From the IMG/VR virus record IMGVR_UViG_3300033993_001993: a stretch of DNA of 64,000 bases; one strand, written 5' to 3'. Position numbers and translations under genes: made by a program. The notes under the pieces are model-generated. The model did not search any database. It was not told where the DNA came from and saw nothing but the letters and a program-made list of their open reading frames with translations. Numbering within the stretch: the stretch's first letter is position 1; every line of letters starts with the position of its first letter. Origin of the DNA: a virus. Taxonomy: Duplodnaviria > Heunggongvirae > Uroviricota > Caudoviricetes. Positions 1,738-60,337 of this stretch are shown in pieces.

Positions 1738-1787
1738 ATCTTTTTTTATTATAACTATAGGAAAAAATTAATTTTAATAAATTGTTT

Positions 1788-2345: not shown

Positions 2346-2352
2346 AAATGAC

Positions 2353-2655: not shown

Positions 2656-2656
2656 A

Positions 2657-12276: not shown

Positions 12277-12284
12277 TATTGTTA

Positions 12285-17376: not shown

Positions 17377-18204
17377 ATGATACTAAAAAATGGATCCAAA
17401 GGAGAGGATGTAAAAAAACTCCAAGTAAAATTAGGTGTGGAAGCGATAGGAACGTTCGGTCCTAAAACTGAAGCCGCGGTTAAAGCTTGGCAAACAGCTA
17501 ACGGATTAAAAGCTGACGGAATTGTTGGTGACGCTACTTGGTCTAAAATGTTTGGATCAAAACCTGAAGTAATTAAGGAAGATGTTGTTATCCCAAGTGG
17601 TGGCTCATTGAATCTTGAGAAATTGAAGGGTCATATTCCTGAGTCAGTTATTGCACAGATCCCTGACACTGCAAAGAAATTTAACATCACAAACAACTTA
17701 AGATTGGCTCACTTCTTGGCACAATGTGGTCACGAATCAGCTGGTTTCAAAGCGGTTAGTGAGAACTTGAATTACTCTGCGGATGGATTAAAAAAGATTT
17801 TTGGTAAGTACTTCCCTGGTAACTTAAACGAATCTTACGCTCGTCAACCTGAAAAGATTGCTGCTCGTGTTTACGCATCGAGAATGGGTAATGGTGATGA
17901 ATCAACTAAAGAAGGTTTTAAATTCAGAGGTCGTGGTTACATTCAATTAACAGGTAAATCAAACTACACAAACTTTACTAAGTTCATTGGTGAGGATTGT
18001 GTTGCAAATCCTGATTTAGTTGCAACAAAATACCCTTTAGCTTCAGCCGCTTTCTTCTTTGACTCAAATAAACTTTGGTCAATCTGTGATAAAGGTGCTG
18101 ATGATGCTACGGTAACGGCAGTAACTAAAAGAGTGAATGGTGGGACAATCGGATTACCTGATCGTATCAAACACTTTAAAGAATATTACAACTTACTTAA
18201 GTAA
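17377..18204 (+). CDS. Endolysin: peptidoglycan-binding domain + glycoside hydrolase family 19
   Basis: N-terminal PG_binding_1-like repeat (DVKKLQVKLG...GPKTEAAVKAWQ); GH19 catalytic blocks HFLAQCGHESAGF and FRGRGYIQLTGKSNYTNF. Confidence 0.85.
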   Translation: MILKNGSKGEDVKKLQVKLGVEAIGTFGPKTEAAVKAWQTANGLKADGIVGDATWSKMFGSKPEVIKEDVVIPSGGSLNLEKLKGHIPESVIAQIPDTAKKFNITNNLRLAHFLAQCGHESAGFKAVSENLNYSADGLKKIFGKYFPGNLNESYARQPEKIAARVYASRMGNGDESTKEGFKFRGRGYIQLTGKSNYTNFTKFIGEDCVANPDLVATKYPLASAAFFFDSNKLWSICDKGADDATVTAVTKRVNGGTIGLPDRIKHFKEYYNLLK

Positions 18205-18803: not shown

Positions 18804-19529
18804 TTACTTTACACCCATTACTTCTTTTTTATAGTATTCTTCAAACCCATCTAAGTAGTTCGTAATACTTTTGCTGTTATCTACACCAATAACCTCATCA
18901 ATTAACCCAAAAGATAAAGCCTCATCTGAAGTATACCATCTATCTCTTGATGAGAAATCTAAAACTTCTTGGAATGTTTTCCCACAATTCTCAGCTAATA
19001 TCTTAAATAAGATGTAGTTGTATTTCTCACCTTCCATTTGGTCAATACGAGTGTCTTGGATATTTCCTCGTGTTCCGTGACTAACTTGGTGGGTCATTAC
19101 TTTTGAGTGGATAAGTGACGATCTTTTACCTTTTGTCCCTGATGATAATAGAACAGATCCCATTGACGCACACATACCCAAGTTTGTTGTAACGATATCT
19201 GAACTAACGTAGTTCATTAAGTCCACAATACCAAGTCCACACATAACAGATCCACCAGGACTATTAATGTAAAGGGTGATGTCTTTCTTTTCAACCGAAT
19301 CTAAAAACAATAATTGTGCTTGGACGATGTCTGACATATGTTGGTCTACCGGACCTGACAACCAAAGTATTCTATCTCTCATTAATCTTGAGAAGATGTC
19401 CATTTGAGTTACTCTCATTTCTCTCTCTTCCAAAATATATGGTGTTAATCCATTCTCAAACTGATCCAACGCCAGTGAACTAATTCCTTCGCTCTTTGCG
19501 AAACTTCTAAACTCTTTTCCGTAATCCAT
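18804..19529 (-). CDS. clpP: ClpP-family serine protease (probable prohead/scaffold protease)
   Basis: LYINSPGGSVMCGLGIVDLMNYV, CASMGSVLL and MTHQ blocks align with the ClpP catalytic Ser/His region. Confidence 0.75.
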   Translation of the reverse strand: MDYGKEFRSFAKSEGISSLALDQFENGLTPYILEEREMRVTQMDIFSRLMRDRILWLSGPVDQHMSDIVQAQLLFLDSVEKKDITLYINSPGGSVMCGLGIVDLMNYVSSDIVTTNLGMCASMGSVLLSSGTKGKRSSLIHSKVMTHQVSHGTRGNIQDTRIDQMEGEKYNYILFKILAENCGKTFQEVLDFSSRDRWYTSDEALSFGLIDEVIGVDNSKSITNYLDGFEEYYKKEVMGVK

Positions 19530-20211: not shown

Positions 20212-20493
20212 TTAATAAATTTTTATTGTTGGGTGTTCTATAATTTCAACGTGTTTCTTACATACTTGGTAATGTTTATCTAAAACTTCTTTGAGTAACT
20301 CTTCTTTTGTTTTACCATTATAATATGCGTAAAAACCACCATATCCCATATCAACCGAGTACCCAAGATACTTCCATCTGAACCATCCCTTTCTTTGGAT
20401 ATTATAAGATTCATCACTATTTTTTACAAATCTAATCTTAATTGTTTTCATATTTTTTAAAATTTTCTTTCCTTCATCATCCTTTTGAGACAT
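20212..20493 (-). CDS. Hypothetical protein
   Basis: 93-aa ORF. Confidence 0.3.
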   Translation of the reverse strand: MSQKDDEGKKILKNMKTIKIRFVKNSDESYNIQRKGWFRWKYLGYSVDMGYGGFYAYYNGKTKEELLKEVLDKHYQVCKKHVEIIEHPTIKIY

Positions 20494-21149
20494 TGTTTAA
20501 TTGTCTCACCTTTTTTAATGTTGTGTCCTGTACCATAAACGCCTCCTTTATATGAAGTAACACCTTTACCAATAGGTTTACTGAACTCAACATCAATACT
20601 TCGTTTTACTTTTCTAAAAAGTCGTGTCCACTTAAACATTAATGGTCTCCATTCTCTTTCCTCTAACTCACAAGTTGCTTCTGTCTCTTGGAACTCATCG
20701 TGAATGTAATAGTACTTATGGGTTTCTTTATGAATCTTTTCTTTCCATTCTTCACTATAAAAATCAATTTTGTTTTTTTTAGTGTGGTTGGCCCAAGTCC
20801 CATCTTTTAGGTATTTGGAGGTTCTTATCCAATCATATTGCCAAGGTAAATCAATACATTTTATTTTTTTAGTTCCCCTATAAATCCATAATGAATCAGG
20901 AAACCAACTACCTACCGAATAAAAATAAAAACCATATGTAGGTGTTTCATCCTTATATTTTGGCGGACGGTTTGTTTTAAATTTTAAATAAAACTGACCC
21001 CAAATAAAAGAAAAATCCAATTTCCAATCCAAACCATTACTTGGTAGGTATCTTACATTCCACTTACGGAACCCGGGATAAAACTCCATCCAATCATTTT
21101 TCCAACTAACATCTCTCGTGCCACCATCAACCTTTCTTAACCCTAACAT
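20457..21149 (-). CDS. Hypothetical Trp/Lys-rich protein
   Basis: 230-aa ORF. Confidence 0.3.
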   Translation of the reverse strand: MLGLRKVDGGTRDVSWKNDWMEFYPGFRKWNVRYLPSNGLDWKLDFSFIWGQFYLKFKTNRPPKYKDETPTYGFYFYSVGSWFPDSLWIYRGTKKIKCIDLPWQYDWIRTSKYLKDGTWANHTKKNKIDFYSEEWKEKIHKETHKYYYIHDEFQETEATCELEEREWRPLMFKWTRLFRKVKRSIDVEFSKPIGKGVTSYKGGVYGTGHNIKKGETIKQCLKRMMKERKF

Positions 21150-27974: not shown

Positions 27975-28703
27975 TTAATTTAGATATTTCCAAATAAAAC
28001 CTCCAGATGTTTTTTGTCTATTTGATAGGCAATCTTTAATTCCTTTTATATTTGTTTTTCTCATTGCCTCGCTTATACTTGGAAAAATTTGGATAATCTC
28101 ATTAGTTAATTTGTCAATTTGTATAATTTCCTTTTTTGGTGTTCCAGCATTTGCGGGTCTATTTTTGTAAAAAAAACTTTTTTCACCAGAAATATCTGGA
28201 CGTTTTTTACCTTTTTTAGATTCAGAAATTTTAGGTTGTTTTTTTCCTGTTTTATTCTTTATTATTTTTTCCCTAACCCCCTCAATATTGTTTGGGTTGT
28301 TTGTTAACATTCTTTGTCTTAACTTTTCCTTGTACTCATCACTATGTATTTTTTTACCTAACATGGATGTTTTTATTTTATTTTTAGTTTCTTCAGATAA
28401 ATAACCACTTTTAGTGTCTGTTTTGGTTTTTATTAAATTCAACCCTTCCTCTAAAACGTTATAGTAATCTTGCCAATACCTCTCTCGATCATTCAAGTTT
28501 TCCAACAAACATTCTTCAATAATTTCAAATTTGTGACTATCAATACCATATTTTTTTAGTGAATTCAGTAATTTTGTTTGAGATGGGCAATTTAATTTAA
28601 TATATTTTTTAAACCTTTCTTCAATATTAACACTTTGTCCAATATAGACTTTATTTTTTGGGTTGGTAATTTTGTATATTCCTATCATACCCATAAATAT
28701 CAC
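27975..28703 (-). CDS. GIY-YIG homing endonuclease with a C-terminal NUMOD-like DNA-binding motif
   Basis: GIYKITNPKNKVYIGQSVNIEERFKKY (GIY...YIG...R...E...N); C-terminal SISEAMRKTNIKGIKDCLSNRQKTSGGFIWKY resembles Seg/I-TevI-type DNA-binding modules. Confidence 0.85.
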   Translation of the reverse strand: MIFMGMIGIYKITNPKNKVYIGQSVNIEERFKKYIKLNCPSQTKLLNSLKKYGIDSHKFEIIEECLLENLNDRERYWQDYYNVLEEGLNLIKTKTDTKSGYLSEETKNKIKTSMLGKKIHSDEYKEKLRQRMLTNNPNNIEGVREKIIKNKTGKKQPKISESKKGKKRPDISGEKSFFYKNRPANAGTPKKEIIQIDKLTNEIIQIFPSISEAMRKTNIKGIKDCLSNRQKTSGGFIWKYLN

Positions 28704-31516: not shown

Positions 31517-32470
31517 TTATTTTTTATTTAAGTTTAAAAACATTCCACTATTACCTGCCATTGTTGTTGGCAATTTCCCGTCCCAAGCTTGTGCTTTCAA
31601 ATACTCAATATACATTGGTGTAATTTGATTTTGTTTAATCTTAATTGCTTGTGCCGCGGCGTAAGCGTTAATGATTAATTCCGCAGAGTCAGCTCTAGCT
31701 ACAGCAACTTTACGTTTACCTTCAGCAATCGCAGTTAATGCTTGTTGTTCCGATGCTTCCGCTTGTTGGATCGCCTTTGTTTTAGCGATAATTGATTCTT
31801 GTAATGCTTCAGGTGGTGTGATGTTTGTACGTAATTGTGATACGTTGAACCATTTAGATAATCGAACGTTACATTCAGCGACGATAGATGCTTCAAATGC
31901 TTGTCTGTGTCCAAAGATACTATCAACCTCCCAAGTGTTTGCCACGTCATTCACCGCTCCGATAATTGCGTTTTTCAACCATCCTTGCTCTACTTGTTTC
32001 ACATCCAATCGTAAATTCACGAACATATCCCCAATATTTGCCTCTTTCAAAGAGTAGTTAAATGTTGGTTTAATGGTTGCAGGGAATCCACCTTTTGTGA
32101 TTACTTGTTGGTCATCATACTCAATGTGTTGTTGGAACGTTGGGAACTCTAACATCTGTTCTGTCCAAGTATTATAAACTACCCACCCTGTTTTGTATTG
32201 GTAATTTGTAACACCACGTTGAGATCCTACCAAACTAACTTTTAAACCTTTGTATCCACTATCTACTTTTTCAAGGGCAAATGGTTGAACCATCGATAAA
32301 ATTAAACCTAAAACGAAAACACCAATAGGCTTGATTAACCAACTCGCTTGAAATGTCTCTCTGGTATCATTCCATCGATCTGTTTCAACTTTAAACATAC
32401 TTCCTCGTGTTTTTAATGCGATGAGGATTGCCGCAATTAAACCTGTAATAAAAATTAATGTACTAATCAT
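31517..32470 (-). CDS. Membrane-anchored SPFH/band-7 (prohibitin-like) domain protein
   Basis: Two N-terminal TM segments, then a domain with Ala/Gln/Glu-rich helices (AIQQAEASEQQALTAIAEGKRKVAVARADSAE) typical of HflK/C and stomatin. Confidence 0.45.
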   Translation of the reverse strand: MISTLIFITGLIAAILIALKTRGSMFKVETDRWNDTRETFQASWLIKPIGVFVLGLILSMVQPFALEKVDSGYKGLKVSLVGSQRGVTNYQYKTGWVVYNTWTEQMLEFPTFQQHIEYDDQQVITKGGFPATIKPTFNYSLKEANIGDMFVNLRLDVKQVEQGWLKNAIIGAVNDVANTWEVDSIFGHRQAFEASIVAECNVRLSKWFNVSQLRTNITPPEALQESIIAKTKAIQQAEASEQQALTAIAEGKRKVAVARADSAELIINAYAAAQAIKIKQNQITPMYIEYLKAQAWDGKLPTTMAGNSGMFLNLNKK

Positions 32471-33597: not shown

Positions 33598-35445
33598 TTA
33601 TGGTAATAGATCGTCACCGGCTAACCAATCATCGTATCTTACAGGTTCAATTTCATTATATTCCGGCAACGGATATTCAAAAAGGGGGTCATAATAGGGT
33701 GAAAATTCAGTAGTGGTAACGTCCCAACTTGGTGTCATTCTAATCAGTCTACCCCTTTCACCAACTAAATTGGCTTCATTAAACACCGCCTGTTGTTCAA
33801 TCTCTTTACCATTACGATATTTTTTAATCATTTTTGGTAATTTAAGAGTTCCCAATTTATACAATAAATTAATATTCACCAATTGGATTCTTGCGACGTG
33901 TGAGAATGTTAAAGAAGGTTCATTATTAAATCTTGCTCGTTCTTGGACGTTTATTAATTCATTATTTCTGTATTGATATTCCACCGTAATTCTATCATCA
34001 CCATCGACGGATCCCTTTCTTATTGAGAATATTAAACATTCAGGTCTTTCAGTGTAAGTTCTCACGCAGTTTCTTTGGTGTTGGGACTCTTTTTCGTAAT
34101 CATTTGTTTTACGGAGTAACACCGGATAATATGTTTCATTTTCATACTCAATTGGGGTTTCTAACGAATCAACATCACCATAGAATCTTTCAACCTCACC
34201 TTTTTTATATGAATCAATTAATCGACTGAATTCCTCGTGTTCCTCATTAAATTCCGCTTCAGAGTTAAATTTAAATCTTACTTTTTCACCCAATTTCTCA
34301 AGTTCACTCTTAAATGCTATGTGTTCATATAGGGTATCAAAATGTCTATCATCCCACAGAAAACCTATTTTAACAATTCTCTCTTTTTCTTTTTTTGTTA
34401 AAACATTTCCCAATACATTAATAAGATTTTTTTGTTGTTCCTTTGAGGTTGAGTACCAATATCTACCACATCTTTCTTCATCATAGTGAACAGAAACCGG
34501 CACCTCTTCATCGTAATTAGGAACCGGAATTAGATCTTCTATGTTTTGATTTGGGTATGATCTACCCACTCTATATCGTTCATCAAATAATTCATCCGGA
34601 AGTTGGTTAAAACTATCGATCCCTAACATAGTATACATCATAAACATTCTATCGAAAGCAACCCATTCAATCTCGTTGAGGATCTTTTTAACTTTGGATC
34701 CTTTGAGATTCATCTTACTCATCATCGCATCAACAAGATTCATATTGTGTTTACGCAATTCAACCCTTGAGAAAAATGTTCCTCCGAACTTCTTCCAATT
34801 ATTAGGTACTTTAACACCATTTACCAAATAGGTGGTTAGGGTATAGAAATTTCTAATATTATCAGTTTTAAAGTCTTGGGCATTAGTTATACCCAATCTA
34901 TCCCAAATTTTTTCAAAAAAACTAAAGAAGTAAAAGTCAGGTTTAATATCTTTATCAATACCTAAACTACTATACAATCCATAAATTGCCTCATTAGTAG
35001 GGTTTATTTTCATAGTTCTACTAATAATTTTTTTCTGTTTGGTAGAAAAGACCCCCGAATAAAATAATTTTGTTTTGAAGTTGAATGTGAGGTACCTTGT
35101 TGTTTTTCTTACCCTAAAGTATTTTTTCCCAACTCTTCTGTCTCTAGTTTGGTATTGATACTTAATAGAGATTTTATTTTCACACTCCTCAATAAAAACT
35201 CTTTGTCTTTCAAAATGAACCGCAGAAAGTACATTACCATAATGTTTAATAAAGTCCTCCTCAGTTAACAATAATGAGTCAGAATAAAACCTTTCTTTAT
35301 TATCAGATAAGGCGTAATCGTCAGTGTTATATGTTCTAACGCCCGATAAATTTTTATTAACAGGACAATAGTTGAGGAAAGTCTTTATTCTATACGACTT
35401 CTTCTCAACAAACTTACTGAATGTTTTACCTTCAACTACTAACAT
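33598..35445 (-). CDS. Large hypothetical protein (615 aa)
   Basis: Long uninterrupted ORF; no family recognised by eye. Confidence 0.4.
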   Translation of the reverse strand: MLVVEGKTFSKFVEKKSYRIKTFLNYCPVNKNLSGVRTYNTDDYALSDNKERFYSDSLLLTEEDFIKHYGNVLSAVHFERQRVFIEECENKISIKYQYQTRDRRVGKKYFRVRKTTRYLTFNFKTKLFYSGVFSTKQKKIISRTMKINPTNEAIYGLYSSLGIDKDIKPDFYFFSFFEKIWDRLGITNAQDFKTDNIRNFYTLTTYLVNGVKVPNNWKKFGGTFFSRVELRKHNMNLVDAMMSKMNLKGSKVKKILNEIEWVAFDRMFMMYTMLGIDSFNQLPDELFDERYRVGRSYPNQNIEDLIPVPNYDEEVPVSVHYDEERCGRYWYSTSKEQQKNLINVLGNVLTKKEKERIVKIGFLWDDRHFDTLYEHIAFKSELEKLGEKVRFKFNSEAEFNEEHEEFSRLIDSYKKGEVERFYGDVDSLETPIEYENETYYPVLLRKTNDYEKESQHQRNCVRTYTERPECLIFSIRKGSVDGDDRITVEYQYRNNELINVQERARFNNEPSLTFSHVARIQLVNINLLYKLGTLKLPKMIKKYRNGKEIEQQAVFNEANLVGERGRLIRMTPSWDVTTTEFSPYYDPLFEYPLPEYNEIEPVRYDDWLAGDDLLP

Positions 35446-37863: not shown

Positions 37864-38451
37864 TTAATCCCCATTAGTTAAAAAATTAATAATCTTTTCT
37901 TTAACGCCACATTGTTTAATACCTTCACTTGATTTTGGGGTTAAAACGAAATTACTAATTGCCCAAGCATCTTTCCAAGGTTCACCATTCTTACCCATAT
38001 TAAGATCGTCAACTGAAACCCAGTGTGTAACCTTAGGATGATCGTGTAGGTATTGTTGAATCTCAACGGTTCGTGTTTGTTCTAACTCCCATTGTGGTGA
38101 CCATATAAATAAATCACTATGAACAGTACAATTCTGAATGTTTGGAGTTAATGCGATTGGTCGTTTGATGATACCTTGACTTTCGTAGTAGTCACCAAGT
38201 TCTTCAAGTGTTGCGTGTAGTTTCCAATCTGAACTTACAACAATTTCACATCCTGTTTCTTCGATAATCTCATTCAATAACTTAATTGCCTTCTTATCGA
38301 AATCATCAAAACGATACTCAACAGGAGCTTCCTTTAAATTTGGTGATGAATCAGGATTCGCTGAACGATATTTCGCCCATTTTTTCTTTCGTCCACCCCA
38401 ATTATTAGAGAGACAAATTACACCATCGTTATCTAAGAAGAGTACTTTCAT
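37864..38451 (-). CDS. HAD-superfamily phosphatase-like protein
   Basis: N-terminal FLDNDGVI (DxDG motif I of HAD hydrolases). Confidence 0.4.
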   Translation of the reverse strand: MKVLFLDNDGVICLSNNWGGRKKKWAKYRSANPDSSPNLKEAPVEYRFDDFDKKAIKLLNEIIEETGCEIVVSSDWKLHATLEELGDYYESQGIIKRPIALTPNIQNCTVHSDLFIWSPQWELEQTRTVEIQQYLHDHPKVTHWVSVDDLNMGKNGEPWKDAWAISNFVLTPKSSEGIKQCGVKEKIINFLTNGD

Positions 38452-38644: not shown

Positions 38645-39640
38645 TTAGTTTCTTATAACTTTTTCAGTTGATCCGTCACTATATCGGATGATATGTAATT
38701 CACCTGATTCAGGTTTACATTCTCTACCTAACATATCTGTGATTTTAACGATTGTCTTCCCATATTGAGTTAACTCTTCAATTTCTGCAAATCCTATACT
38801 CTCAGTTTGATTGATAACAATAGTTTTATAATCCATTGATTTAGTATAACAATACACAACTAATTGGAAGTTATAACATCCTGTTGAGTCGATCATTGGG
38901 TAGTTCACCATATATGTTTGGTATGTACCTGTTGTATCAATAACATACCACACACATAAAATACTGTCTAAACCACTATTAATAAGACCATTTATTGTCA
39001 TATATGCTGTGTCGATTGTGTTAAAATTTATATTACAATCTTCTATGGTTGTGGTGAAATTACCAATTGGACTATTACAAGTACCTGTTGAATTTAACAC
39101 TAAAGTATCTCCGAAATTGGTTGATTGTGTTACGATTGAATCACATAATGTTGTATTACATCCGTTAGCATCCATTACATAACAACAATACCCCCCTACA
39201 GATAAATTATTGATCGTCTGAAGCATATTACCATTACTCCACTGATATGTGTATGGTGCCGTTCCGTTAATAACATTTGCTGTCATTGATCCATCATTAA
39301 TTGTAGAATCAATTGTTGTGATATATCCACCGAAGTTAAAACACGGATTGAATGTACCTGATGTTATGTTGAACGTAAGTGTTGTTGGGGTATTATTAAC
39401 AACGAATGAAACTGTGTAAGTTCCAGGACAAAGACTATCAACATAGTATCCTCCTGATTGGATCACCGCGCCAAATCCATTCCAATTAATCACCGATAAG
39501 TTAACACTCGTATCTAATACTGCAGTACCATCACAGATGTTAGGACCACTAGTAGGTGAGGTATAAACCATTGTTTGGGACATTACCCCAAAAGAAATAA
39601 CACTAATAAGTGTCAGTAATAATAATTTTAATTTTTTCAT
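38645..39640 (-). CDS. Secreted SprB-repeat protein with a T9SS-type C-terminal domain
   Basis: Signal peptide; INDGSMTANVINGTAPYTYQWSNGN matches the SprB repeat consensus (DGS...GG..PYTY.W); C-terminal KITDMLGRE...IIRYSDGSTEKV is CTD-like. Confidence 0.5.
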   Translation of the reverse strand: MKKLKLLLLTLISVISFGVMSQTMVYTSPTSGPNICDGTAVLDTSVNLSVINWNGFGAVIQSGGYYVDSLCPGTYTVSFVVNNTPTTLTFNITSGTFNPCFNFGGYITTIDSTINDGSMTANVINGTAPYTYQWSNGNMLQTINNLSVGGYCCYVMDANGCNTTLCDSIVTQSTNFGDTLVLNSTGTCNSPIGNFTTTIEDCNINFNTIDTAYMTINGLINSGLDSILCVWYVIDTTGTYQTYMVNYPMIDSTGCYNFQLVVYCYTKSMDYKTIVINQTESIGFAEIEELTQYGKTIVKITDMLGRECKPESGELHIIRYSDGSTEKVIRN

Positions 39641-39718: not shown

Positions 39719-42280
39719 TTAAAACTTATATTTAACCGATAGTGAAACCGTTTGACCAAAAGTAATCTCTTGCCACCTATTATCTTCTGTGTCATATCTA
39801 TGATTACCATTTAGGTCTTGGAAATATATAAGTTTTTGTGCTAATATATCTTTTAAGTTTAATTTTAATTCAACCTTTTTAAATGTTTTTGACAATTGGA
39901 AATCGATCACATTTCTTCCGTTTTCCCAAACGCTAGGTTCCTGTTGATTACCAACAATATAGATTCTAGGTCCGATAACATTATAGGATAATGTAACATT
40001 AAAATCTTCTTTTTTGTTCGTGTAAAATAACCCTGAATTAATGATGTATGGTGATTGTCCTTGTAGTGGTCTGTTACCACCAGCACCTATAACCTCATCC
40101 ATATTTACCACTGACTTAATAATTGAAATATTACTATAGATTGTAAGTTGGTTCCATAATTTATGGTTTTCAACTTTAGATAAAAACCCTAATTTAAATC
40201 TGAATTCTAACTCACCACCAAAACTTTGTGATCTTTCAATGTTTGAGAAGTATAACTCAGGTGCTCCTGACGTTCCGGTCCTATTTATAGTTTCAATAGG
40301 GTTATTAAAGTTTTTGTAAAACCCTGACAAACTTATAATCTGACCACTACCAGGGTAAATCTCATATCTAATATCACAATTAGTTATCTTAGTTCTTTTT
40401 AAATATGGATTACCTGATGTGATATTATCCAATACGAAGTTATAGAAGTTAAATGGCGCTAATTCTCTAAACTCAGGTCTAGATACCGTTTGACTAATAC
40501 TTCCTCTTAACTTCATTTTTTTATTGAAGTTATAAATTACATTAACAGAAGGTAATAAATCAATTACCGTTGTGTCAATGTTTCTATTTAAGTTACTCCC
40601 AAACTCAATGTAGTTAAAGTTTTGATTGTAAGATTCTAATCTAACTCCACCCGCAAATCTCCACTTGTTCAATTTGTAATCAACCATAGTGTAGAAAGAA
40701 TTTAAGAATGAATTTGCATCATAACTATCATCAACTTTGGTTGCCTCATCTAATTTAAAACCACCCTGACCATTACTTAAAAGACCCATATTCTCAGTGG
40801 AGAATATTTGATCCATAGGTAATAAAAGTAAGTCACTATTAAAGGTACTACCGTTTGGTTTATATTGTGAAAACCCAAAATTTCTTGATTGAAAGTCTTT
40901 CATTCTAAATTGATTCCACCCACCGATCTTGACTGAATTAACATCTTTAAATGGAATTGTTAGATCATATCTTGCACTTATAATTTTTTCATCTGATTCA
41001 GACCAAAACATATTACCAGCAGCAGTTGGTATTGTACCGTTCTGTTGAATAACTGCAACATATTGTTCTGTTGGGTCATCCTCATTTAAAGAGTATTTTC
41101 TATACACTACTCTCCTTAGGTTCGGAATGTCTCTTTTAACATTACTATAACCAACACTCCAATTAAATTTATTTTCTTTTATCGTGTGAATCCCAAGTAA
41201 TTGATTAGTTAAAAAGTTATTTTGAGTATACCAAAAATTCGTAGATTTCTCCCATTGTCTTGGATCACTATCTAACTCTCTAACACCCTTTCTAACATTA
41301 ACCTTATCTTCAGAATTTACAGAATAAATATTCTTAAACTTGATGGTGTTGTTTTCATTAATCTTATAAACCAAATTTAACATACCACTATTTAAAACAC
41401 TCTGAGTAAATACAGAATCATTTAGTTCCATTTTCTTAACCACACCCGTTGCTTGTTCCTCAAACTCTCTTCTAACAATATTATTATAGTTGAAGTTGTT
41501 TTGGTAGTTATACGTTAAAATGAAACTTAACGTTTGTTTCTTTTTAAATTTAATGTTTCTACTTAAGGTATATTGAATAGATGGGTTAGGTAACGCGAGC
41601 CTATCTTTAGTTGACCAAGTAAAGTCCATTAGTTTTGCAACCTCAGACCTTTCTTGTTTTGATAAGTTTTGGAAATCAATAGTTCCATTAATATTTGGTA
41701 ACCCTCTAGATTCAACACTATATGTTTTAAAATCCCTAAATGTTGCAATTGTATTATGTGATCCACCAATCTGTATTGTATGAGTATTCTCATTTTTAGG
41801 TTCGGAAGTGTTAATATCAATTACGCCTCCAGCAAACTCACCAGGTAAATCAGGACTAGCAGTCTTCATCACCATTAGATTGTCAATCATATTTGATGGG
41901 AATATATCAAACGAAAAAGATCGCTTATCGGATTCCGAACTTGGTAAAGGTAGCCCGTTCAATAATGCGAAGTTGTATCTATCATTAAGACCCCTCACAA
42001 CCACGAACTTATTATCCACAACACTTATCCCACTAACACGTTTAAAAACATCAGAGACCTTAGAGTCTGGTGTTCTCTTAAAGGTCTCTGCGTTAATTCC
42101 GTCTACAGATGTAATACTATTTCTTTGTAGTTTTACAAGTTCTGTTGTTGATTCTTTATTAATTTTAAAGGTAACCGTAACCCCCTCAACATTTCTAATT
42201 GTATCTTTTTTAAATGTCTCAGATGGTTGAGCCAATAATTGTATTGGTAGTACCAATAATAACGTCAATAAAAATTTCAT
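39719..42280 (-). CDS. TonB-dependent outer-membrane receptor (plug + 22-strand barrel)
   Basis: Signal peptide; plug-domain blocks (VVVRGLNDRYNFALLNGLPLPSSE, EFAGGVIDINT); 853 aa; C-terminal ...LSVKYKF ending in an aromatic residue. Confidence 0.75.
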   Translation of the reverse strand: MKFLLTLLLVLPIQLLAQPSETFKKDTIRNVEGVTVTFKINKESTTELVKLQRNSITSVDGINAETFKRTPDSKVSDVFKRVSGISVVDNKFVVVRGLNDRYNFALLNGLPLPSSESDKRSFSFDIFPSNMIDNLMVMKTASPDLPGEFAGGVIDINTSEPKNENTHTIQIGGSHNTIATFRDFKTYSVESRGLPNINGTIDFQNLSKQERSEVAKLMDFTWSTKDRLALPNPSIQYTLSRNIKFKKKQTLSFILTYNYQNNFNYNNIVRREFEEQATGVVKKMELNDSVFTQSVLNSGMLNLVYKINENNTIKFKNIYSVNSEDKVNVRKGVRELDSDPRQWEKSTNFWYTQNNFLTNQLLGIHTIKENKFNWSVGYSNVKRDIPNLRRVVYRKYSLNEDDPTEQYVAVIQQNGTIPTAAGNMFWSESDEKIISARYDLTIPFKDVNSVKIGGWNQFRMKDFQSRNFGFSQYKPNGSTFNSDLLLLPMDQIFSTENMGLLSNGQGGFKLDEATKVDDSYDANSFLNSFYTMVDYKLNKWRFAGGVRLESYNQNFNYIEFGSNLNRNIDTTVIDLLPSVNVIYNFNKKMKLRGSISQTVSRPEFRELAPFNFYNFVLDNITSGNPYLKRTKITNCDIRYEIYPGSGQIISLSGFYKNFNNPIETINRTGTSGAPELYFSNIERSQSFGGELEFRFKLGFLSKVENHKLWNQLTIYSNISIIKSVVNMDEVIGAGGNRPLQGQSPYIINSGLFYTNKKEDFNVTLSYNVIGPRIYIVGNQQEPSVWENGRNVIDFQLSKTFKKVELKLNLKDILAQKLIYFQDLNGNHRYDTEDNRWQEITFGQTVSLSVKYKF

Positions 42281-42285
42281 TCCTA

Positions 42286-43848
42286 TTATTTTTTAACTAT
42301 AACTTTTTCTGTATGACCTTCAGCGTTGATAATATAAATACCATTTTCCAAATCTGATAAGTCCGTATTGTTTTGTTTTACAACTTTACCCAATGAATTG
42401 TAGATTACAAAATTTAAAGATTTTTTATCAGAATCAATACTGATTAAACCTTCTGTTGGGTTAGGAAATACTTTAAACGATGTTTTGATTGTTTCAGTAA
42501 TACTATTAGTTAAATCACCAAATTTAGAATTTGTAAAGTCAGCACCTGTTGCAACAACTGATGTGCTATCTAATCTACAATCAGGTACAACACCACTTGG
42601 TACAAATATGTTTACCCAATTGATTTGATTGATTGTTGTTAACGTATCGTTATTGTGACTCGAAAAGTATGTTGTTAAAATTCCTGGTGTTGTAACTAAA
42701 CAATTTGTTGGTATTTCACAAAGAACATTACTTTCGAAAGCCAATGTGTCCCCTAACAAATTATCCTCAACTGATGTACCTTCTAATGATAATCCCTTTT
42801 CCCATCCAACAACAAGAGTATTGAACACTGATGTTGCGGAGTTTCTTCTAATTCTAAAAGCTTTCTCAAACTTCTCACCTGTTGGTAGAGTAACCGTACC
42901 ATTACCTTTCGCACCTACAATAGTGAAATTAGAGAATATCGGAGCGGTTTGTGGTAAAGACGAACTACCTTGTGCGTCATTATCTGATTCGAAACAATTT
43001 GAGTCACCTGCGGCGTCTGATAAATTTTCATTTCTAATTGATAACCCAAACTGAACGTTACCTCTGTATCCAAAATCAGTGTCGAAATCATCGTCTGTTG
43101 TTGAATAAGCTATTAAATGTTTACAATTAACCGTTCCTCCAAACCATTCAAAAGCATCGTCACCTGAATAACTTACCTGAATAAAATCAACTTGAGTTCC
43201 CGAACCAACTGATCCAAAAGTAATACCATTTATTTCTTTATTTGGTGCTAATGGTATTCCCGCGAATTCAATTCTAATATATTTTAATATTCCTGAATTA
43301 TCATTATCGTTATTACCACCAAATTCGGTATCAGATGTTGGAGCAATACCCTCAATGTTTGCAACACCACCAGGTTGGTTATTAACACCGTTACCTAAAA
43401 GTACAACTCCACCCCAATCACCTTCAGATCTATTTCCAATAGAATTGTTTGATGTAAAAACAATTGGTAATTGTTGTGTTCCTTCAGCGATTAATTTAGA
43501 ACCTCTTGTTATAATCAAAGTCCCTTGTGTTGCATTATCACCTCTGATGATTGTTCCTGGTTGAATCGTTAGTGTTGATCCGTTTTTAACATAAATTTTG
43601 TTTTCTAACAAGATAACACCTGACCAAATTGTATTTGTTGTGATGTCCGAACTAACGGTTGTTTGTGTCGATGGGTAATTTGTATTTTCGGGATTAAAAT
43701 TAGACCACCCATAAGTCCAATCTGTTTGTGGTGTATTGTCCGTCACAGGAAAAGCTCCCTTATAATTGGTAACGGTCCAAAACTGACTTTGTGCGCTTGT
43801 TAAGAAAACAAACATTAACATTACGATACTTGCGTAAATCTTTTTCAT
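42286..43848 (-). CDS. Secreted protein with a T9SS C-terminal sorting domain
   Basis: Signal peptide MKKIYASIVMLMFVFLTSAQS; the C-terminus FKVFPNPTEGLISIDS...NGIYIINAEGHTEKVIVKK matches the T9SS CTD. Confidence 0.6.
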   Translation of the reverse strand: MKKIYASIVMLMFVFLTSAQSQFWTVTNYKGAFPVTDNTPQTDWTYGWSNFNPENTNYPSTQTTVSSDITTNTIWSGVILLENKIYVKNGSTLTIQPGTIIRGDNATQGTLIITRGSKLIAEGTQQLPIVFTSNNSIGNRSEGDWGGVVLLGNGVNNQPGGVANIEGIAPTSDTEFGGNNDNDNSGILKYIRIEFAGIPLAPNKEINGITFGSVGSGTQVDFIQVSYSGDDAFEWFGGTVNCKHLIAYSTTDDDFDTDFGYRGNVQFGLSIRNENLSDAAGDSNCFESDNDAQGSSSLPQTAPIFSNFTIVGAKGNGTVTLPTGEKFEKAFRIRRNSATSVFNTLVVGWEKGLSLEGTSVEDNLLGDTLAFESNVLCEIPTNCLVTTPGILTTYFSSHNNDTLTTINQINWVNIFVPSGVVPDCRLDSTSVVATGADFTNSKFGDLTNSITETIKTSFKVFPNPTEGLISIDSDKKSLNFVIYNSLGKVVKQNNTDLSDLENGIYIINAEGHTEKVIVKK

Positions 43849-46642: not shown

Positions 46643-47764
46643 TTAATGGGAGTCACCTACGTTATTTTTTTCACCATAGATCAAATAATCCGGATTAATA
46701 ATCTTAGCAATTTTGTGTCTACTACCATCCAAAGATTTAACAACAACACCTTCGTGAGGAACTTTAGTTCCGTGAATGTTGTTATTGAACACGTATTTAT
46801 CTTGTTCTTCTTTTGACCAAAGTCCTGAATACAATGTTTCAACTTCTTCCAACCCCATACATTTGAAGTGAGTTGATTGATAAATGTTATCCTCATATAC
46901 ACCGTCAACCTCAACATCAAATCCGGCAAAACGAATATCAGTCAAACCATAGTCGTAATTCTTTTGTATTCCGTGTCCGTAGATCTCACCATAGATGATA
47001 AAACCAGACCCTATACCATCAGGTAAATATGTGTCTTTAACGTGATCCCAAAGTTTTTTACGAATATTGTATTTTTCCTCAATCGTTTTCCACACATCAC
47101 TATTGTAGAACCCTTGAGAGTCAGATCCTTTCTCTACGTTATGTGATCCGTACACATATTCATAACCAACCCATTGATTACCAAACCATCCACGGATTTT
47201 ATCCAAGAATGAAAGTTTTTTCTTTTTTACAATCCCGTAACGAGCATTTGTCCCGTGTAATTTACGAGTGATCACAACGTCATCGTCCTCGTTAAACATA
47301 TCAGGCACGTTCTTCATATTTGGGAATTTGTAGTAAACGTGGAAGTTAGGGTTTTGGTGGTACTTGAATTTTCTACCCCCAACACTCATCTCAACCATCT
47401 TAACTGGTGGTTCGTACTTAAAGATTTCCAACAACTCCATACAATCAGATCCTTCGTAACGCCATTTTTCAGGAATAAATGAAATTGGGATAATTAAACA
47501 TTCCGAATAAACACCTCTCAACTTAACAGTACGAACACGACCACCTTTACGCAAGTAATTGGTTACGTTCATTGCATCTGATAATTTAACAGGGATAACT
47601 GCATCCGTAGTTGCTACAACTACCGAATCACCCGTTTTATATTCGCCTTTTTTGATGATAGCATTCCATCCACCGATAACACCTAATTCTATGTTGTCTG
47701 CTCCTTCTATTGGTTTAACCTCTCCGATTACACCAACATAACATACGCTATTATTATTTTCCAT
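46643..47764 (-). CDS. ATP-dependent RNA ligase (Rnl2/Rnl5-type nucleotidyltransferase with an N-terminal extension)
   Basis: Motif I RKLHGTNARYG (KxHGxN); IYGEIYGHGIQKNYDY aligns with T4 Rnl2 VFGEFAGPGIQKNVDY; HEGVVVK and RHKIAKI match motifs IV/V. About 110-aa N-terminal OB-like extension. Confidence 0.8.
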   Translation of the reverse strand: MENNNSVCYVGVIGEVKPIEGADNIELGVIGGWNAIIKKGEYKTGDSVVVATTDAVIPVKLSDAMNVTNYLRKGGRVRTVKLRGVYSECLIIPISFIPEKWRYEGSDCMELLEIFKYEPPVKMVEMSVGGRKFKYHQNPNFHVYYKFPNMKNVPDMFNEDDDVVITRKLHGTNARYGIVKKKKLSFLDKIRGWFGNQWVGYEYVYGSHNVEKGSDSQGFYNSDVWKTIEEKYNIRKKLWDHVKDTYLPDGIGSGFIIYGEIYGHGIQKNYDYGLTDIRFAGFDVEVDGVYEDNIYQSTHFKCMGLEEVETLYSGLWSKEEQDKYVFNNNIHGTKVPHEGVVVKSLDGSRHKIAKIINPDYLIYGEKNNVGDSH

Positions 47765-50935: not shown

Positions 50936-51592
50936 TTATCCTACAACCCCAATGATATCATCTAGGTGGTGATCATTCTCTATTTCAGACACTATAGTTC
51001 TTTTGTCCATCATATGAACAATCTCAGTAAGACTATATGGTTGGAGGTTATTTCCGTCCACCCCAACATCTAATCTTTTACCGTTACCCCATTTTCTACT
51101 TGCCGGTAAGTGTACGTGTCCGTGAAGGTGAATAACACCTTTATTTAAACCATTCCAACTCGCAAATGGATAGTGAGTCATCACAAAATTTGCACCATTT
51201 ATACTTACCTGAAGGTAGTCACTAACAGATAAGAACATATCTTTTATGTTCTCTCTGTTATTTCTAATGTGGTGATCGTGATTTCCCAATACTAAGTGGA
51301 TATTTTTACATATCAATCGGTCCAAGAATATTTTAATAAATTCAAACCCACCAAATGCAATATCACCTAACATTATTAATGTATCATCCTGACCTACATT
51401 GGAGTTAATGTTGTCAACTAACGTGTTGTTCATCTGATCCAGAGTGTTGAAGTCTCTCGTACTATCCACAGGAACTTTCCCGTCCGTCGTTCTCCATTCC
51501 GTCACACCTCTACAGATATTTTTATGGTTATAGTGGGGATCTGATGTAATCCATACTCTACCTGTTGTTAATATTTTATCAAATTTCATCAT
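50936..51592 (-). CDS. Calcineurin-type metallophosphoesterase (RNA end-healing phosphatase candidate)
   Basis: ITSDPHYNH, LGDIAFGG, VLGNHDHH and HLHGHVH motifs; ATGA overlap with the upstream kinase gene. Confidence 0.7.
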   Translation of the reverse strand: MMKFDKILTTGRVWITSDPHYNHKNICRGVTEWRTTDGKVPVDSTRDFNTLDQMNNTLVDNINSNVGQDDTLIMLGDIAFGGFEFIKIFLDRLICKNIHLVLGNHDHHIRNNRENIKDMFLSVSDYLQVSINGANFVMTHYPFASWNGLNKGVIHLHGHVHLPASRKWGNGKRLDVGVDGNNLQPYSLTEIVHMMDKRTIVSEIENDHHLDDIIGVVG

Positions 51593-56071: not shown

Positions 56072-56305
56072 TCAAGACCTGTCTTTTTCGAGTGTCTCGA
56101 TGTGGTGTTGAAGGTACCATTGGGCTTTCCTGAGGTCCTCGAGTTCTTTATCTTTTCCTTTTTTTCCTGCACGTGATATATATTTTACCGTATTTCCTAA
56201 TGAGAATCCTAATTCCCAAGCATCAATAACTTTGATTGACTCATAAGGGTTATTTTCACCACCATAATGATTTGGGTGATTTACTTGTTCGTTATTATTT
56301 TCCAT
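56072..56305 (-). CDS. DUF3310 family phage protein
   Basis: NHPNHYGG...ESIKVIDAW...FSLGNTVKYISRAG.K.......EDLRKAQWYL is the DUF3310 signature. Confidence 0.6.
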   Translation of the reverse strand: MENNNEQVNHPNHYGGENNPYESIKVIDAWELGFSLGNTVKYISRAGKKGKDKELEDLRKAQWYLQHHIETLEKDRS

Positions 56306-56310
56306 TTTAA

Positions 56311-57456
56311 TTAATTATTTTTTTCAGTTGTAAGTTCGTGATCGTCATCATTTTGATATTCACTTAATAATTCGTCATTAGACATAGTTCCATATTTCTC
56401 ACTAAGACCATTCATATCAACATTATTGTTCATTATAGATTTCATCTCGTAAATTTGTTCCGCTAAACTAAGTGATGTAACGATCTCTTGGATGATTTTA
56501 TATGGGTCGGCGTTTGATCCTGGTCTACGATCTTCAACATATCCCCTCCATTCCTTTGCGGTATCTTGGGGAACTCTAATTGACGCTCCACGATCAGATA
56601 CCCCCCAACTGAATTTGTCAATTGACTGAGTTTCAAAATTACCCGTTAAACGTAACTCATTATCAGACCCATACGCCTTGATGTGATCATTATGTCTTGT
56701 TTCAAAAGCCCCAAATAATGACATAAAATATTTTTCATTACTTTCGTTTCTCATCATATCAGTTGAGAAATTTGTATGTAATCCAGATCCATTCCATTCA
56801 CCAGATCTTAATGGTTTTGGGTGTATGGTAATCTCATACCCGTATTTTTCCGAAATCTTTTCCAAAAAATATCTACTCATCCATAGATCATCCCCACCTT
56901 TTAACTTACCTTTTGATAGGACCTGATATTCCCATTGACCTAACGCCACTTCAGCATTTGTGCCAGTAATGTCGATACCATATTCTAAACACATATTGGT
57001 ATGTTCTTCAACAAAGTCACGACCAACTACGTTTGATCCAACACCACAATAGTATTTACCTTGTCCTTCTAGGGATCTTCTGTCGTGACCCAAAATTGGC
57101 CCATTAGGTTCTTTCATAATGAAGTATTCTTGTTCAAAACCAAACCATAAATCAGAAAATTGATTTCCAATTTTTGATCTCTCATTTGTTTTATGTGGTG
57201 TACCATCAGGATTTAAAACCTCACATAGAACATATATGGTGGAAATTTCTTCCGGTACATACCATCTAACTGGTTTTAATAGACAATCTGAATTATCAGT
57301 TTCTGCCTGATTTGTTGACGATCCATCGAAGTTCCACATTGGGAGGTTTTCTATTGATCCTGTTATAGTATCCTCATCAACAATCTTAACCTTACTTCTA
57401 AGGTTTGGTTCTGGGTTATATCCATCAACCCATACATATTCTAACTTAATTTTCAT
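56311..57456 (-). CDS. glnII: Glutamine synthetase type II (eukaryote-like)
   Basis: YVWVDG, NLPMWNFDGSSTNQAE, WFGFEQEYF, YYCGVG, GTNAEVALGQWEYQV, HPKPLRSGEWNGSGLHTNFST, RLTG.FETQSIDKFSWGVSDRGASIRVP and YVEDRRPGSNADPY match GSII blocks along the full length. Confidence 0.85.
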   Translation of the reverse strand: MKIKLEYVWVDGYNPEPNLRSKVKIVDEDTITGSIENLPMWNFDGSSTNQAETDNSDCLLKPVRWYVPEEISTIYVLCEVLNPDGTPHKTNERSKIGNQFSDLWFGFEQEYFIMKEPNGPILGHDRRSLEGQGKYYCGVGSNVVGRDFVEEHTNMCLEYGIDITGTNAEVALGQWEYQVLSKGKLKGGDDLWMSRYFLEKISEKYGYEITIHPKPLRSGEWNGSGLHTNFSTDMMRNESNEKYFMSLFGAFETRHNDHIKAYGSDNELRLTGNFETQSIDKFSWGVSDRGASIRVPQDTAKEWRGYVEDRRPGSNADPYKIIQEIVTSLSLAEQIYEMKSIMNNNVDMNGLSEKYGTMSNDELLSEYQNDDDHELTTEKNN

Positions 57457-58447: not shown

Positions 58448-59662
58448 CTAATCTGTTGGTATCACATAATACCAAGTACCATTTATTCTGTCTTCATAAA
58501 TATCACTTCCATTATTTGATAGTATTCCATAACCATCGGAACTAACTATTGTGTTAGTAAGTTCACTAATGTCAATAAAATCCATAATAAATTTTTTATC
58601 AAACCCATAATCATCAATAAATGATTTAATATCGTCCGCATAATCATCAACCCTACTATTAATCTCCTGAACTATCTGATCTTCATCGTAGTCACCTTCA
58701 GGGTCTTCCATAATATTGTTAATTGTGTTCTGAAGTCCTTCAATCTTTTTTTGAATTGTTTTATTTTCTTCGTCGGTTAAACCCCCACTAATAAATTTAT
58801 TATTTAATTTCTTAATGGTATTTTCCAACGTACTTACCTGAGATTTTTGATAATCCGATAAAGCTAAACCTATATCGTAAGTTCCACCCGGGCTAGATCT
58901 TATATCGTCCTCATAGAATTCATATAACCATCTACGCCAATGTTGGACATCAATTGCGTCATTCCATACCCATTCTCTAAAAGCATCATATCCAACGTCA
59001 TCAACCAAATTTTCAATATATGCTTCTGCAGCCTTATCCATTTCATCCTGAGTATAAACGTCGTATGTGTTTGGAACTAGCGCCGATCCTCCTACCCATT
59101 CATATTTTTTTCCGTAACCATAACTACCCACCCCATCAGGGTAAATAAAGTATTTGTCTTCAGTAACTTCATTTCCTTCTTCATCTTCAACTTCCTCAGG
59201 AATTCCCTCTTCAATTAAAAAGTTGTATAACGCCTCCGTTCTTTCCGCATCATCATCACCACCAGTTGCAATATTCCATTCGTTGTCAGATCTTAACTCT
59301 TCTAACTCATCAAGTTTTTTTGCCAATTCTTGTTGTTTTATTATACTCCACATTGTGGATCCATAATTGTTAACATAACCATCAACCTCAATTCCGTTAA
59401 TATTTGGGACGTTTGAATCACTTATGTCCAATCTACCCATTACTCTAACAATACCTGTTAATTGTCCGATTTTTTTATTATTACTAACATCTAAAGGTCC
59501 AGTAATAACAATCCCTTTACCTCTATACGGTTTTAGTTTTGCAACTCTATCGGCAACACCACCAACATCCTCTAACACTTCTTTATATTGTTCGGGGGTG
59601 AGTTGAATAAGATTTTCATCTTGTTCTATAATAAAGTTCTTTATGAATTTTTTAATTGACAT
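58448..59662 (-). CDS. Hypothetical acidic protein
   Basis: 404-aa ORF. Confidence 0.35.
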   Translation of the reverse strand: MSIKKFIKNFIIEQDENLIQLTPEQYKEVLEDVGGVADRVAKLKPYRGKGIVITGPLDVSNNKKIGQLTGIVRVMGRLDISDSNVPNINGIEVDGYVNNYGSTMWSIIKQQELAKKLDELEELRSDNEWNIATGGDDDAERTEALYNFLIEEGIPEEVEDEEGNEVTEDKYFIYPDGVGSYGYGKKYEWVGGSALVPNTYDVYTQDEMDKAAEAYIENLVDDVGYDAFREWVWNDAIDVQHWRRWLYEFYEDDIRSSPGGTYDIGLALSDYQKSQVSTLENTIKKLNNKFISGGLTDEENKTIQKKIEGLQNTINNIMEDPEGDYDEDQIVQEINSRVDDYADDIKSFIDDYGFDKKFIMDFIDISELTNTIVSSDGYGILSNNGSDIYEDRINGTWYYVIPTD

Positions 59663-59749: not shown

Positions 59750-60337
59750 ATGACTTCAGGAATATATAAAATTACAAATTTAAACGATAATAAGGTATAT
59801 ATAGGTAGCTCTATAAATGTCACTAAAAGGCAATATAAACATTTTTGGATGTTACGGAACAACAAACACGACAATCTCCATCTACAAAATTCATTTAATA
59901 AATTTGGCGAAAGTTCTTTTTTATTTGAGGTCATTCAATTTTGTGGTGTTAATAATTTAGTTTCATTAGAAAATAATTATATTATAGAATATAAGTCGAA
60001 CGATTCTAATTATGGATATAATTTGGCGAAAGTTAATGAATTTAGAAGAAATACCTATAACGACGAAGTTAAACTAAAGTTGTCGTTATATAATAAAAAC
60101 AAAAACGGTAATATAAATAAGTTCACTTTAACTGAAATTAATGGTTGTGTTTCGAATACTTTTGATAATTTATTCGAAGCGGCAAGATATTTAATAAATG
60201 GAGGATTCACAACAGGTTCTGAAAGAAATGTTAGACAAAAACTTTCAAACGCGTTAAGAGGAAAAATAATAAAAAATGATTATAATGGTACGATAAGAAA
60301 AACCATTTATAAACATAAATTTGAAACAATAAACTAA
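59750..60337 (+). CDS. GIY-YIG homing endonuclease (free-standing, opposite strand to its neighbours)
   Basis: GIYKITNLNDNKVYIGSSINVTKRQYKH...LQNSFNKFGESSF.FEVI...E..YI...NYGYN. Confidence 0.85.
   Translation: MTSGIYKITNLNDNKVYIGSSINVTKRQYKHFWMLRNNKHDNLHLQNSFNKFGESSFLFEVIQFCGVNNLVSLENNYIIEYKSNDSNYGYNLAKVNEFRRNTYNDEVKLKLSLYNKNKNGNINKFTLTEINGCVSNTFDNLFEAARYLINGGFTTGSERNVRQKLSNALRGKIIKNDYNGTIRKTIYKHKFETIN

Follow-up and report, generated by a model that had tools for sequence, protein, structure and literature searches.

An open reading frame (ORF) of 381 amino acids (aa) at positions 56311 to 57456, on the minus strand of a 64,000-nucleotide stretch of tailed-phage DNA (IMG/VR virus record IMGVR_UViG_3300033993_001993; the whole stretch is referred to below as the window), is predicted from its sequence and modeled fold to encode a full-length class II glutamine synthetase (GSII; GS is used for glutamine synthetase of any class). 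We consider it likely, with a probability of roughly 0.8, that the product is a working GSII of the bacterial type, that a lineage of large Bacteroidota phages has carried it for a long time, and that it sustains ammonium assimilation and glutamine supply during infection. The occurrence of GS in large phages has already been published, in 2025 and 2026, in accounts whose GS passages are discussed below. What the present analysis adds is the assignment to the bacterial type of class II, the duplication of a function that the host would already have, an old and selectively kept clade with a unique C-terminal tail, and the presence of T4-like phage contigs in the same GSII radiation.

Gene, fold, and active site

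The gene and its parts, all on the minus strand, are as follows.

56311..57456, minus: GSII coding sequence from the ORF listing, 381 aa plus stop codon, ATG start, TAA end
57208..57456, minus: N-terminal beta-grasp domain, aa 1-83 (PF03951), which holds the ammonium-pocket residues D44 and S47
56473..57162, minus: catalytic domain, aa 99-328 (PF00120)
56311..56472, minus: clade-specific C-terminal tail, aa 329-381 plus stop codon, outside the GSII core

An earlier note on this DNA, made from the letters alone, had proposed that the ORF matches GSII along its whole length, and family profiles and solved structures bore this out. Both Pfam domains scored above the gathering score (Gln-synt_N, PF03951, residues 5 to 83, 1.4e-10; Gln-synt_C, PF00120, 6.4e-20), and the NCBIfam GlnII model (NF041605) aligned residues 1 to 328 of the query with profile positions 1 to 327 of 333 (2.3e-100). 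The GlnII model gave 336 bits, whereas the GlnA model and the model named type III gave 58 and 45, respectively. The beta-grasp and catalytic domains lie in one chain, which is the GSII architecture, and the core of residues 1 to 328 is followed by a tail of 53 aa. Sequence matches to solved structures were collinear and were led by the yeast enzyme (3fky, 6e-88) and that of Streptomyces coelicolor (4bax, 9e-83), followed by plant, human/mammalian, and fly GSII (1e-75 to 1e-79), while GSI chains reached only ~1e-12.

An AlphaFold monomer model built on an alignment of 122 diverse sequences had a mean predicted local distance difference test score (pLDDT) of 93.3 and a predicted template-modeling score of 0.89; a model built on 47 sequences that were all at least 73% identical had a pLDDT of 48 and was unusable. 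The best fold match of the usable model was the Streptomyces GSII 4bax_A (template-modeling [TM] score, 0.82/0.91; root-mean-square deviation, 1.9 Å), followed by the fly, maize, human, and yeast enzymes, and the top 50 matches were all GSII, with TM scores of ~0.8. By homology with such enzymes, the phage protein is probably decameric, with two rings of five subunits each. The BFVD library of viral structures yielded distant "amidoligases" at TM scores of ~0.3 but no close GSII. We set aside GS matches of ~25% identity in "phage" records of Listeria, Enterococcus, and Staphylococcus, which are GSI-like and unrelated to the query.

To read the active site, we mapped 20 positions of human GS, using a human sequence identical to PDB entry 8dnu_A at 373 of 373 positions, onto the query. 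We take these positions to comprise six metal ligands, glutamate and ATP contacts, the Glu flap, and the ammonium pocket, whose Asp presumably serves the active site of the neighboring subunit, as in solved GSII. All 20 are kept in the query, so that the alignment reveals no loss of the kind that the earlier note had raised as a possible objection, and all 20 are also kept in each of 32 close relatives. The metal ligands correspond to E108, E110, E169, E176, H227, and E308, and the substrate and ATP residues correspond to Y136, N222, G223, N229, S231, R269, E275, R289, R294, Y306, R310, and R311. The ammonium-pocket residues D44 and S47, equivalent to human D63 and S66, are invariant in all 32 clade members.

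The ratio of nonsynonymous to synonymous substitution (dN/dS; Nei-Gojobori method, six divergent pairs of relatives) was 0.05 to 0.14 in the core, and the GC content of the gene (0.353 overall, 0.262 at third codon positions) matches that of other genes in the window. The low dN/dS values, the retained gene order described below, and a composition like that of other phage genes together argue for long-term selective upkeep, and on this sequence evidence we regard the gene as one under strong purifying selection that has been kept in the phage lineage rather than carried as transient cargo.

Phylogenetic position and phage-borne relatives

We placed the query among 101 dereplicated sequences by neighbor joining on 328 core columns, using Kimura distances (200 bootstraps) and BLOSUM62 score distances (100 bootstraps). 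Eukaryotes were represented by five GSII (yeast, human, and three plant sequences), with chlorophyte GSIIb and giant-virus sequences left out. The sequences most like the query, at 76% core identity or more, are called clade A. Bootstrap support for the groupings that matter here was as follows.

Eukaryotic GSII versus all others: Kimura 100%, score distance 100%
Streptomyces branching outside all other prokaryotic and phage sequences: Kimura 96%, score distance 93%
Clade A, containing the query, monophyletic on a long stem: Kimura 100%, score distance 100%
Clade A plus the IMG/VR pair L027/L029: Kimura 73%, score distance 55%
Clade A plus L027/L029, a clade of 319-aa IMG/VR proteins, and three marine gammaproteobacterial metagenome-assembled genomes: Kimura 79%, score distance 64%

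The query thus sits within a prokaryote/phage radiation and does not group with eukaryotic GSII. Because it lies outside the eukaryotic sequences in both trees, the term "eukaryote-like," which the earlier note had applied to it, survives only as a historical label for the class, and the gene is, as judged from these trees and from sequence identity, a bacterial-type GSII rather than a eukaryote-derived one. Core identity points the same way, at 50 to 58% to chromosomal bacterial and archaeal GSII and 43 to 49% to eukaryotic GSII (human GLUL, yeast Gln1, plant GS1/GS2). The eukaryotic enzymes share the fold and the active-site residues, but they are split off at 100% bootstrap and carry no equivalent of the phage tail.

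Cellular GSII were taken from a scan of one genome per GTDB species, and statements about them refer to the matches listed. Among these, the best cellular GSII was 56% identical by tblastn and 58% identical over the trimmed core; this distance, together with the phylogeny, indicates that the gene is not a recent host copy but an old resident of the phage lineage. The earlier note had also doubted a straightforward host origin, on the grounds that Bacteroidota normally use GSIII. The doubt stands, and no near-identical host Bacteroidota sequence appeared in the trees, where clade A is separate at 100% bootstrap, but the argument offered for it fails, since GSII is chromosomal in many Bacteroidota and lies beside GSIII in Flavobacteriaceae. 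Holders among the matches listed include Saprospiraceae, Chitinophagales, Cytophagales, and Flavobacteriales (Robertkochia, Muricauda, Aquimarina, Tenacibaculum, and Eudoraea), as well as Planctomycetota, Verrucomicrobia, marine Gammaproteobacteria, and marine group II archaea; Bacteroidetes had already been counted among the bacterial holders of GSII by Ghoshroy et al. 2010 (PMC2978018). The gammaproteobacterial genes are chromosomal, lying near genes for gyrB, a tRNA synthetase, and dihydroorotate and glycerol-3-phosphate dehydrogenases, and one Flavobacteriales GSII gene lies between ftsH, a biotin-ligase-family gene, and genes for cargo of the type IX secretion system (T9SS). In Eudoraea adriatica (L119), the ORF at 1601-3787 (minus strand) was confirmed as GSIII (3o6x_A, 5.9e-277) and is oriented divergently to the GSII gene at 4001-4996 (plus strand), from which we conclude that Flavobacteriaceae carry the two classes side by side. 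A GS-like ORF of ~730 aa adjoins GSII at 11 loci of Flavobacteriaceae and other Bacteroidota (L119, L067, L071, L080, L083, L086, L093, L099, L103, L127, and L130), which look like paired GSII-GSIII loci. Since the likely host phylum has its own GSII, the phage copy would duplicate a host function rather than fill a gap.

All contigs on which clade A has so far been found are phage-like, and they reach 318 kb. The exact protein is present on 40 public contigs, the longest of 122 kb, and more than 120 clusters (formed at 90% identity) are at least 73% identical to it over 97% of its length, some of them on contigs of 251 to 318 kb; the contexts inspected, on contigs of 291 to 318 kb, were phage-like, with many small unannotated ORFs on a single strand. 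Another 50 loci came from IMG/VR contigs. In a search of 1.84 billion representatives clustered at 50% identity, the best hit was P0141, which is 59% identical and has both the tail and the same gene order, and all other full-length representatives were at most 56% identical. The gene block around GS in the window is as follows.

58448..59662, minus: 404-aa protein, second conserved upstream neighbor, syntenic in L001, L002, and L138
57625..58404, minus: 259-aa protein, conserved upstream neighbor, syntenic in L001, L002, and L138
57453..57635, minus: 60-aa ORF directly upstream of GS, its TGA stop overlapping the GS start (ATGA)
56072..56305, minus: DUF3310 protein, 77 aa (PF11753, 4.3e-15), starting 5 nucleotides after the GS stop

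With the ATGA overlap upstream and DUF3310 only 5 nucleotides downstream, the GS gene is embedded in a tight codirectional block. A scan for sigma-70 promoters and terminators around GS found sites no more commonly than in shuffled sequence. The order in L001 and L002 is 404-aa gene, ~255-aa gene, 60-aa ORF, GS, DUF3310, and methylase; an ORF of 60 to 62 aa occupies the equivalent place in L001, L002, and L138, and DUF3310 keeps its own place after GS in L001 and L002. Relative to their L138 counterparts, the 259-aa neighbor is 40% identical (1e-60) and the 404-aa neighbor 23% identical (5e-14), whereas GS itself is 59% identical. Because P0141 has the tail and the shared neighbors have diverged to 40% and 23%, GS appears to have traveled vertically with the phage lineage for a long time. 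An alternative arrangement occurs in L003 and L004, in which GS lies two small ORFs upstream of a homologue of thymidylate synthase (ThyA; L003 11405-12523, L004 1888-3060), a placing that may point to a link with nucleotide metabolism or modification.

The sister viral clades are tailed phages as well. On the marine IMG/VR contig L049 (132-6786), and also on L040 and L048, a GSII of 319 to 320 aa follows the tail tube gene directly and precedes a helicase gene; the neighbors on L049 are a T4-like head scaffold gene, a major head gene (phrog_138, 1.6e-145), and the tail tube gene. These short proteins lack ~10 beta-grasp residues. On L030, GS is flanked by a phage DNA polymerase gene and by the gene for a single-strand DNA-binding protein. 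Uncultured megaphages of 635 to 735 kb (LR756501/LR756503, LR756502, and LR745206) likewise carry GSII, 44 to 54% identical to the query, but without the tail and at other places in the tree: LR756501 is positioned among Bacteroidota sequences, and LR756502 and LR745206 form a basal pair whose grouping with clade A received 0% bootstrap support. These positions suggest either separate acquisitions or very deep divergence.

The description of the window as a phage-like genome is upheld by several genes, which are listed here together with those that bear on the host.

18804..19529, minus: prohead (head maturation) protease, a tailed-phage hallmark (phrog_94, 3.1e-35)
17377..18204, plus: endolysin (phrog_181, 1.1e-65)
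20457-21149, minus: homologue of Acb3, an antidefense inhibitor of the CBASS system (PF25187, 1.6e-30)
59750-60337 (plus) and 27975-28703: two GIY-YIG endonuclease genes
21282-22529, minus: ThyA homologue, 415 aa, with ~100 extra residues relative to the 266-position Pfam profile
39719-42280, minus: full-length TonB-dependent receptor-like protein, 853 aa, with plug and beta-barrel
15310-17220, 42286-43848, 38645-39640, and 11308-12354, all minus: two T9SS sorting-domain proteins (one with a cohesin-like region), an SprB-repeat protein, and a C-type lectin-domain protein

DUF3310 and an N6/N4 DNA methylase are further phage-type genes, and GS is flanked by such genes on both sides (Acb3, GIY-YIG, DUF3310, RNA ligase, and DNA methylase). 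Nearly all ORFs in the window are on the minus strand, and GC content is uniform, at 0.29 to 0.37. The closest relatives of the prohead protease lie in the 635-kb uncultured phage LR745206 (63%), in LR756502 and LR756504, and in the Prevotella Lak megaphages (44%). PHROGs gave no match for most of the large ORFs, and no gene for a capsid, a portal, or a terminase was recognized among the genes of the window; the capsid, terminase, and PolB markers are all missing from the 64 kb.

T9SS sorting domains, SprB repeats, and TonB-dependent receptors are typical of Bacteroidota. The two sorting domains, the SprB repeat, and the receptor encoded in the window therefore suggest that the host is probably a member of that phylum. 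The proteins with sorting domains, SprB repeat, and C-type lectin domain are phage-borne counterparts of Bacteroidota cell-surface features. A homologue of the TonB receptor (29% identity, 92% coverage) lies ~2 kb from the prohead protease gene in the megaphage LR745206, so that the receptor gene seems to belong to the conserved genes of megaphages and not to contaminating host DNA.

The C-terminal tail, the proposed role, and its alternatives

The feature that most clearly sets clade A apart is what follows the catalytic domain. The length beyond the DPY motif has a median of 15 aa in 80 cellular GSII, versus a median of 54 aa (range, 51 to 106) in 137 proteins of the clade A hit set; the tail proper, of ~40 to 90 aa, is conserved in clade A and absent from the cellular GSII examined. 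Positions L329, K354, Y355, L363, L364, and Y367 are invariant in 47 sequences, and the consensus reads ...QIYEMK..M...VDMDGL.GKYGTMSN(D/E)ELLKEY.... The tail evolves under purifying selection that is weaker than that on the core (dN/dS, 0.15 to 0.42), and nothing in Pfam matches it. In the model, the tail prolongs the last core helix (residues 318 to 345) and adds short helices at 348 to 355 and 360 to 368, with an acidic stretch at its end; the pLDDT declines from 96 to ~71 over residues 330 to 370 and is low beyond 370. Two relatives of 346 aa (L024 and L025) have a clean internal deletion of most of the tail that joins ...SLDTTE to ELLKEYKEEKN and leaves the core intact.

It is possible, although we hold it doubtful, that the tail-bearing enzymes are a phage-only lineage in which the helical extension adds a new property, such as stabilization of one ring against the other or docking to a phage or host partner. 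The first of these would have an analogy in the C-terminal "helical thong" of GSI dodecamers. If so, the property could free glutamine synthesis in the infected cell from the nitrogen control of the host, and, taken with the tailless GSII genes beside T4-like head and tail genes, it would mean that tailed phages have long kept and exchanged a GSII lineage of their own. The tail poses a concrete and cheap biochemical question, namely, how activity, regulation, and oligomeric state compare with and without it.

With regard to function, ammonium enters biomass through glutamine synthetase, and the synthesis of purines, pyrimidines, amino sugars, and NAD draws on glutamine as its amide donor. We propose that the carrier is a large tailed phage, probably of ~300 kb and related to moraphages and megaphages, in which GS has been inherited with its neighbors under purifying selection and has gained a conserved helical C-terminal tail. 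The phage GSII would convert glutamate, NH4+, and ATP to glutamine, ADP, and Pi and would thereby maintain both the assimilation of ammonium and the supply of glutamine in the infected cell; as a separate copy, it may escape the control that the host exerts over the GSII and GSIII of its chromosome. The earlier note suggested an auxiliary metabolic gene, and this remains the best reading of a gene that may benefit the phage in this way. A phage-borne GS could maintain nitrogen assimilation and nucleotide precursors in infected aquatic Bacteroidota, which bears on the effects of viruses on nitrogen cycling.

The idea of nitrogen supply has already been published for large phages, and the earlier note's remark that such genes are unusual for phages is outdated. 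As described in the relevant passages of Perez-Hernandez et al. 2025 (PMC12619734), moraphages are aquatic jumbo phages of 200 to 307 kb with predicted Flavobacteriia hosts, stand apart as a clade of their own in trees of capsid, terminase, and PolB, have a glycosyltransferase-rich core, and carry GS as an auxiliary metabolic gene in 9 of 25 cases. The corresponding passages elsewhere report 248 GS genes in 247 huge phages (bioRxiv 10.1101/2025.02.27.640493), phage glnA that clusters with prokaryotic homologues among large DNA viruses of mudflats (2026; PMC13172472), and glnA as a listed gene in a 2026 survey of jumbo phages (PMC13037316). The published reading of the moraphage and huge-phage genes, in the passages concerned, is nitrogen and glutamine supply during infection, as it is here. 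The present gene resembles the moraphage and huge-phage genes in that its relatives lie on contigs of 251 to 318 kb, its window has Bacteroidota host signals and glycosyltransferases, and GS is present, a likeness that is consistent with kinship but not diagnostic of it; for moraphages it rests on contig sizes, host signals, and glycosyltransferases, the capsid, terminase, and PolB genes being outside the window. Unlike our description, the GS passages of the moraphage and huge-phage accounts mention neither the class of the enzyme nor a separate phage clade nor a C-terminal tail; across the GS passages of the published accounts as a set, the tail is the only feature that is absent.

Several observations weigh against the proposed role or the history on which it depends. 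The GlnII score of 336 bits is below the 500-bit equivalog cutoff, so that the protein is a diverged relative of the curated GlnII set. Characterized GSII have nothing equivalent to the conserved tail, which could alter regulation, assembly, or partners. Because the 64-kb window showed no amidotransferase that would consume glutamine, the link from glutamine to nucleotide synthesis is one that we infer. The trees are neighbor-joining trees only, in which the sister-group placement is moderately supported (55 to 79%). Finally, a closer cellular homologue could exist beyond the matches listed, although the exhaustive search of representatives argues against one. Set beside bacterial GSII (GlnII, NF041605; 4bax; the GSIIb of Ghoshroy et al. 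2010), the query shares the two domains, a collinear alignment, the active site, and the fold, and it departs from them in its score relative to the cutoff, its tail, and its separate, long-stemmed clade on phage contigs.

These departures could be taken as signs of a changed function, in which the GS fold and its ATP-dependent gamma-glutamyl-phosphate chemistry serve another amine (a polyamine, an alkylamine, or a precursor for modification of DNA or virions) or the tail makes the protein a regulator or docking partner. The tea plant's theanine synthetase, which is GSII-like and uses ethylamine with few sequence changes, offers a precedent, and a tail under purifying selection, the low GlnII score, the place of GS two small ORFs upstream of ThyA in a related phage group, the ~100-aa insertion in the ThyA homologue of the window, and the fact that phage proteins of this fold in BFVD are distant "amidoligases" only would all fit. 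We nevertheless judge such a change improbable: the ammonium pocket (D44, S47, Y136, E169, and E275) and the glutamate site do not vary within the clade and match those of bona fide GSII, the core shows 50 to 58% identity to GSII from bacterial chromosomes, GS and ThyA are not kept adjacent in the window's own lineage, and L024 and L025 have lost most of the tail with the core intact.

The remaining alternatives concern origin, and the same results leave little room for either. Had the gene been captured recently from the host, or were the window a Bacteroidota chromosome or misassembled contig that carries a host GSII, one could point to the native GSII of many Bacteroidota, including Flavobacteriales, and to the host-like genes for the TonB-dependent receptor and T9SS cargo. 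Yet the best cellular match among those listed is only 56 to 58% identical, cellular GSII lack the tail, and the receptor has a homologue in a megaphage; moreover, the phage protease, endolysin, Acb3, and homing endonucleases, the uniform composition and strand bias, and the recurrence of the gene block on phage-like contigs of up to 318 kb make this explanation hardly credible. Descent from a eukaryote or a giant virus, by way of a protist or a nucleocytoplasmic large DNA virus, would be suggested by the yeast enzyme as the best single sequence match in PDB, by the viral, Mimivirus-like GSII of marine metagenomes (Allen et al. 2012, PMC3379637), and by the bacterial-type GSIIb of green algae, which is related to a gammaproteobacterial one (PMC2978018). 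It is very unlikely given that the five eukaryotic GSII sampled stand apart at 100% bootstrap with the query nested beyond Streptomyces at 93 to 96%, that core identity is higher to bacteria (50 to 58%) than to eukaryotes (43 to 49%), that the best structural match is bacterial (4bax), and that the sister viral clades are tailed phages (L049, with its T4-like head and tail genes, and L030, with DNA polymerase and single-strand DNA-binding protein genes). We therefore favor a functional, bacterial-type GSII of long standing in the phage lineage.

Other features of the window

The window also contains the following genes, all on the minus strand.

37864-38451, 46643-47764, and 50936-51592, minus: RNA-repair-like set (HAD domain of "Swiss army knife" RNA repair proteins, PHA02142-type RNA ligase, and metallophosphoesterase)
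991-2345 and 8206-8703, minus: sugar-modification set (family 2 glycosyltransferase, family 9 glycosyltransferase, and a homologue of dTDP-4-dehydrorhamnose 3,5-epimerase), the family 9 match being weak (E 1.5e-4, just under the Pfam cutoff)
31517-32470, 10713-11306, and 33598-35445, minus: SPFH/Band 7 protein (phrog_200, 1e-46), non-specific DNA/RNA endonuclease, and PcfJ-like protein

No tRNAs were found in the window, and a near-identity DNA search of its 45- to 64-kb part against GenBank phages gave no match. In L001, at the locus identical to that of the window, an AAA_33 kinase-like gene adjoins the phosphoesterase gene. The GIY-YIG gene at 59750-60337 (plus strand) lies between a 371-aa gene and the 404-aa gene in both the window and L001 and is absent from that junction in the syntenic 318-kb contig L002 (6353-9010), an insertion polymorphism of a mobile endonuclease gene.

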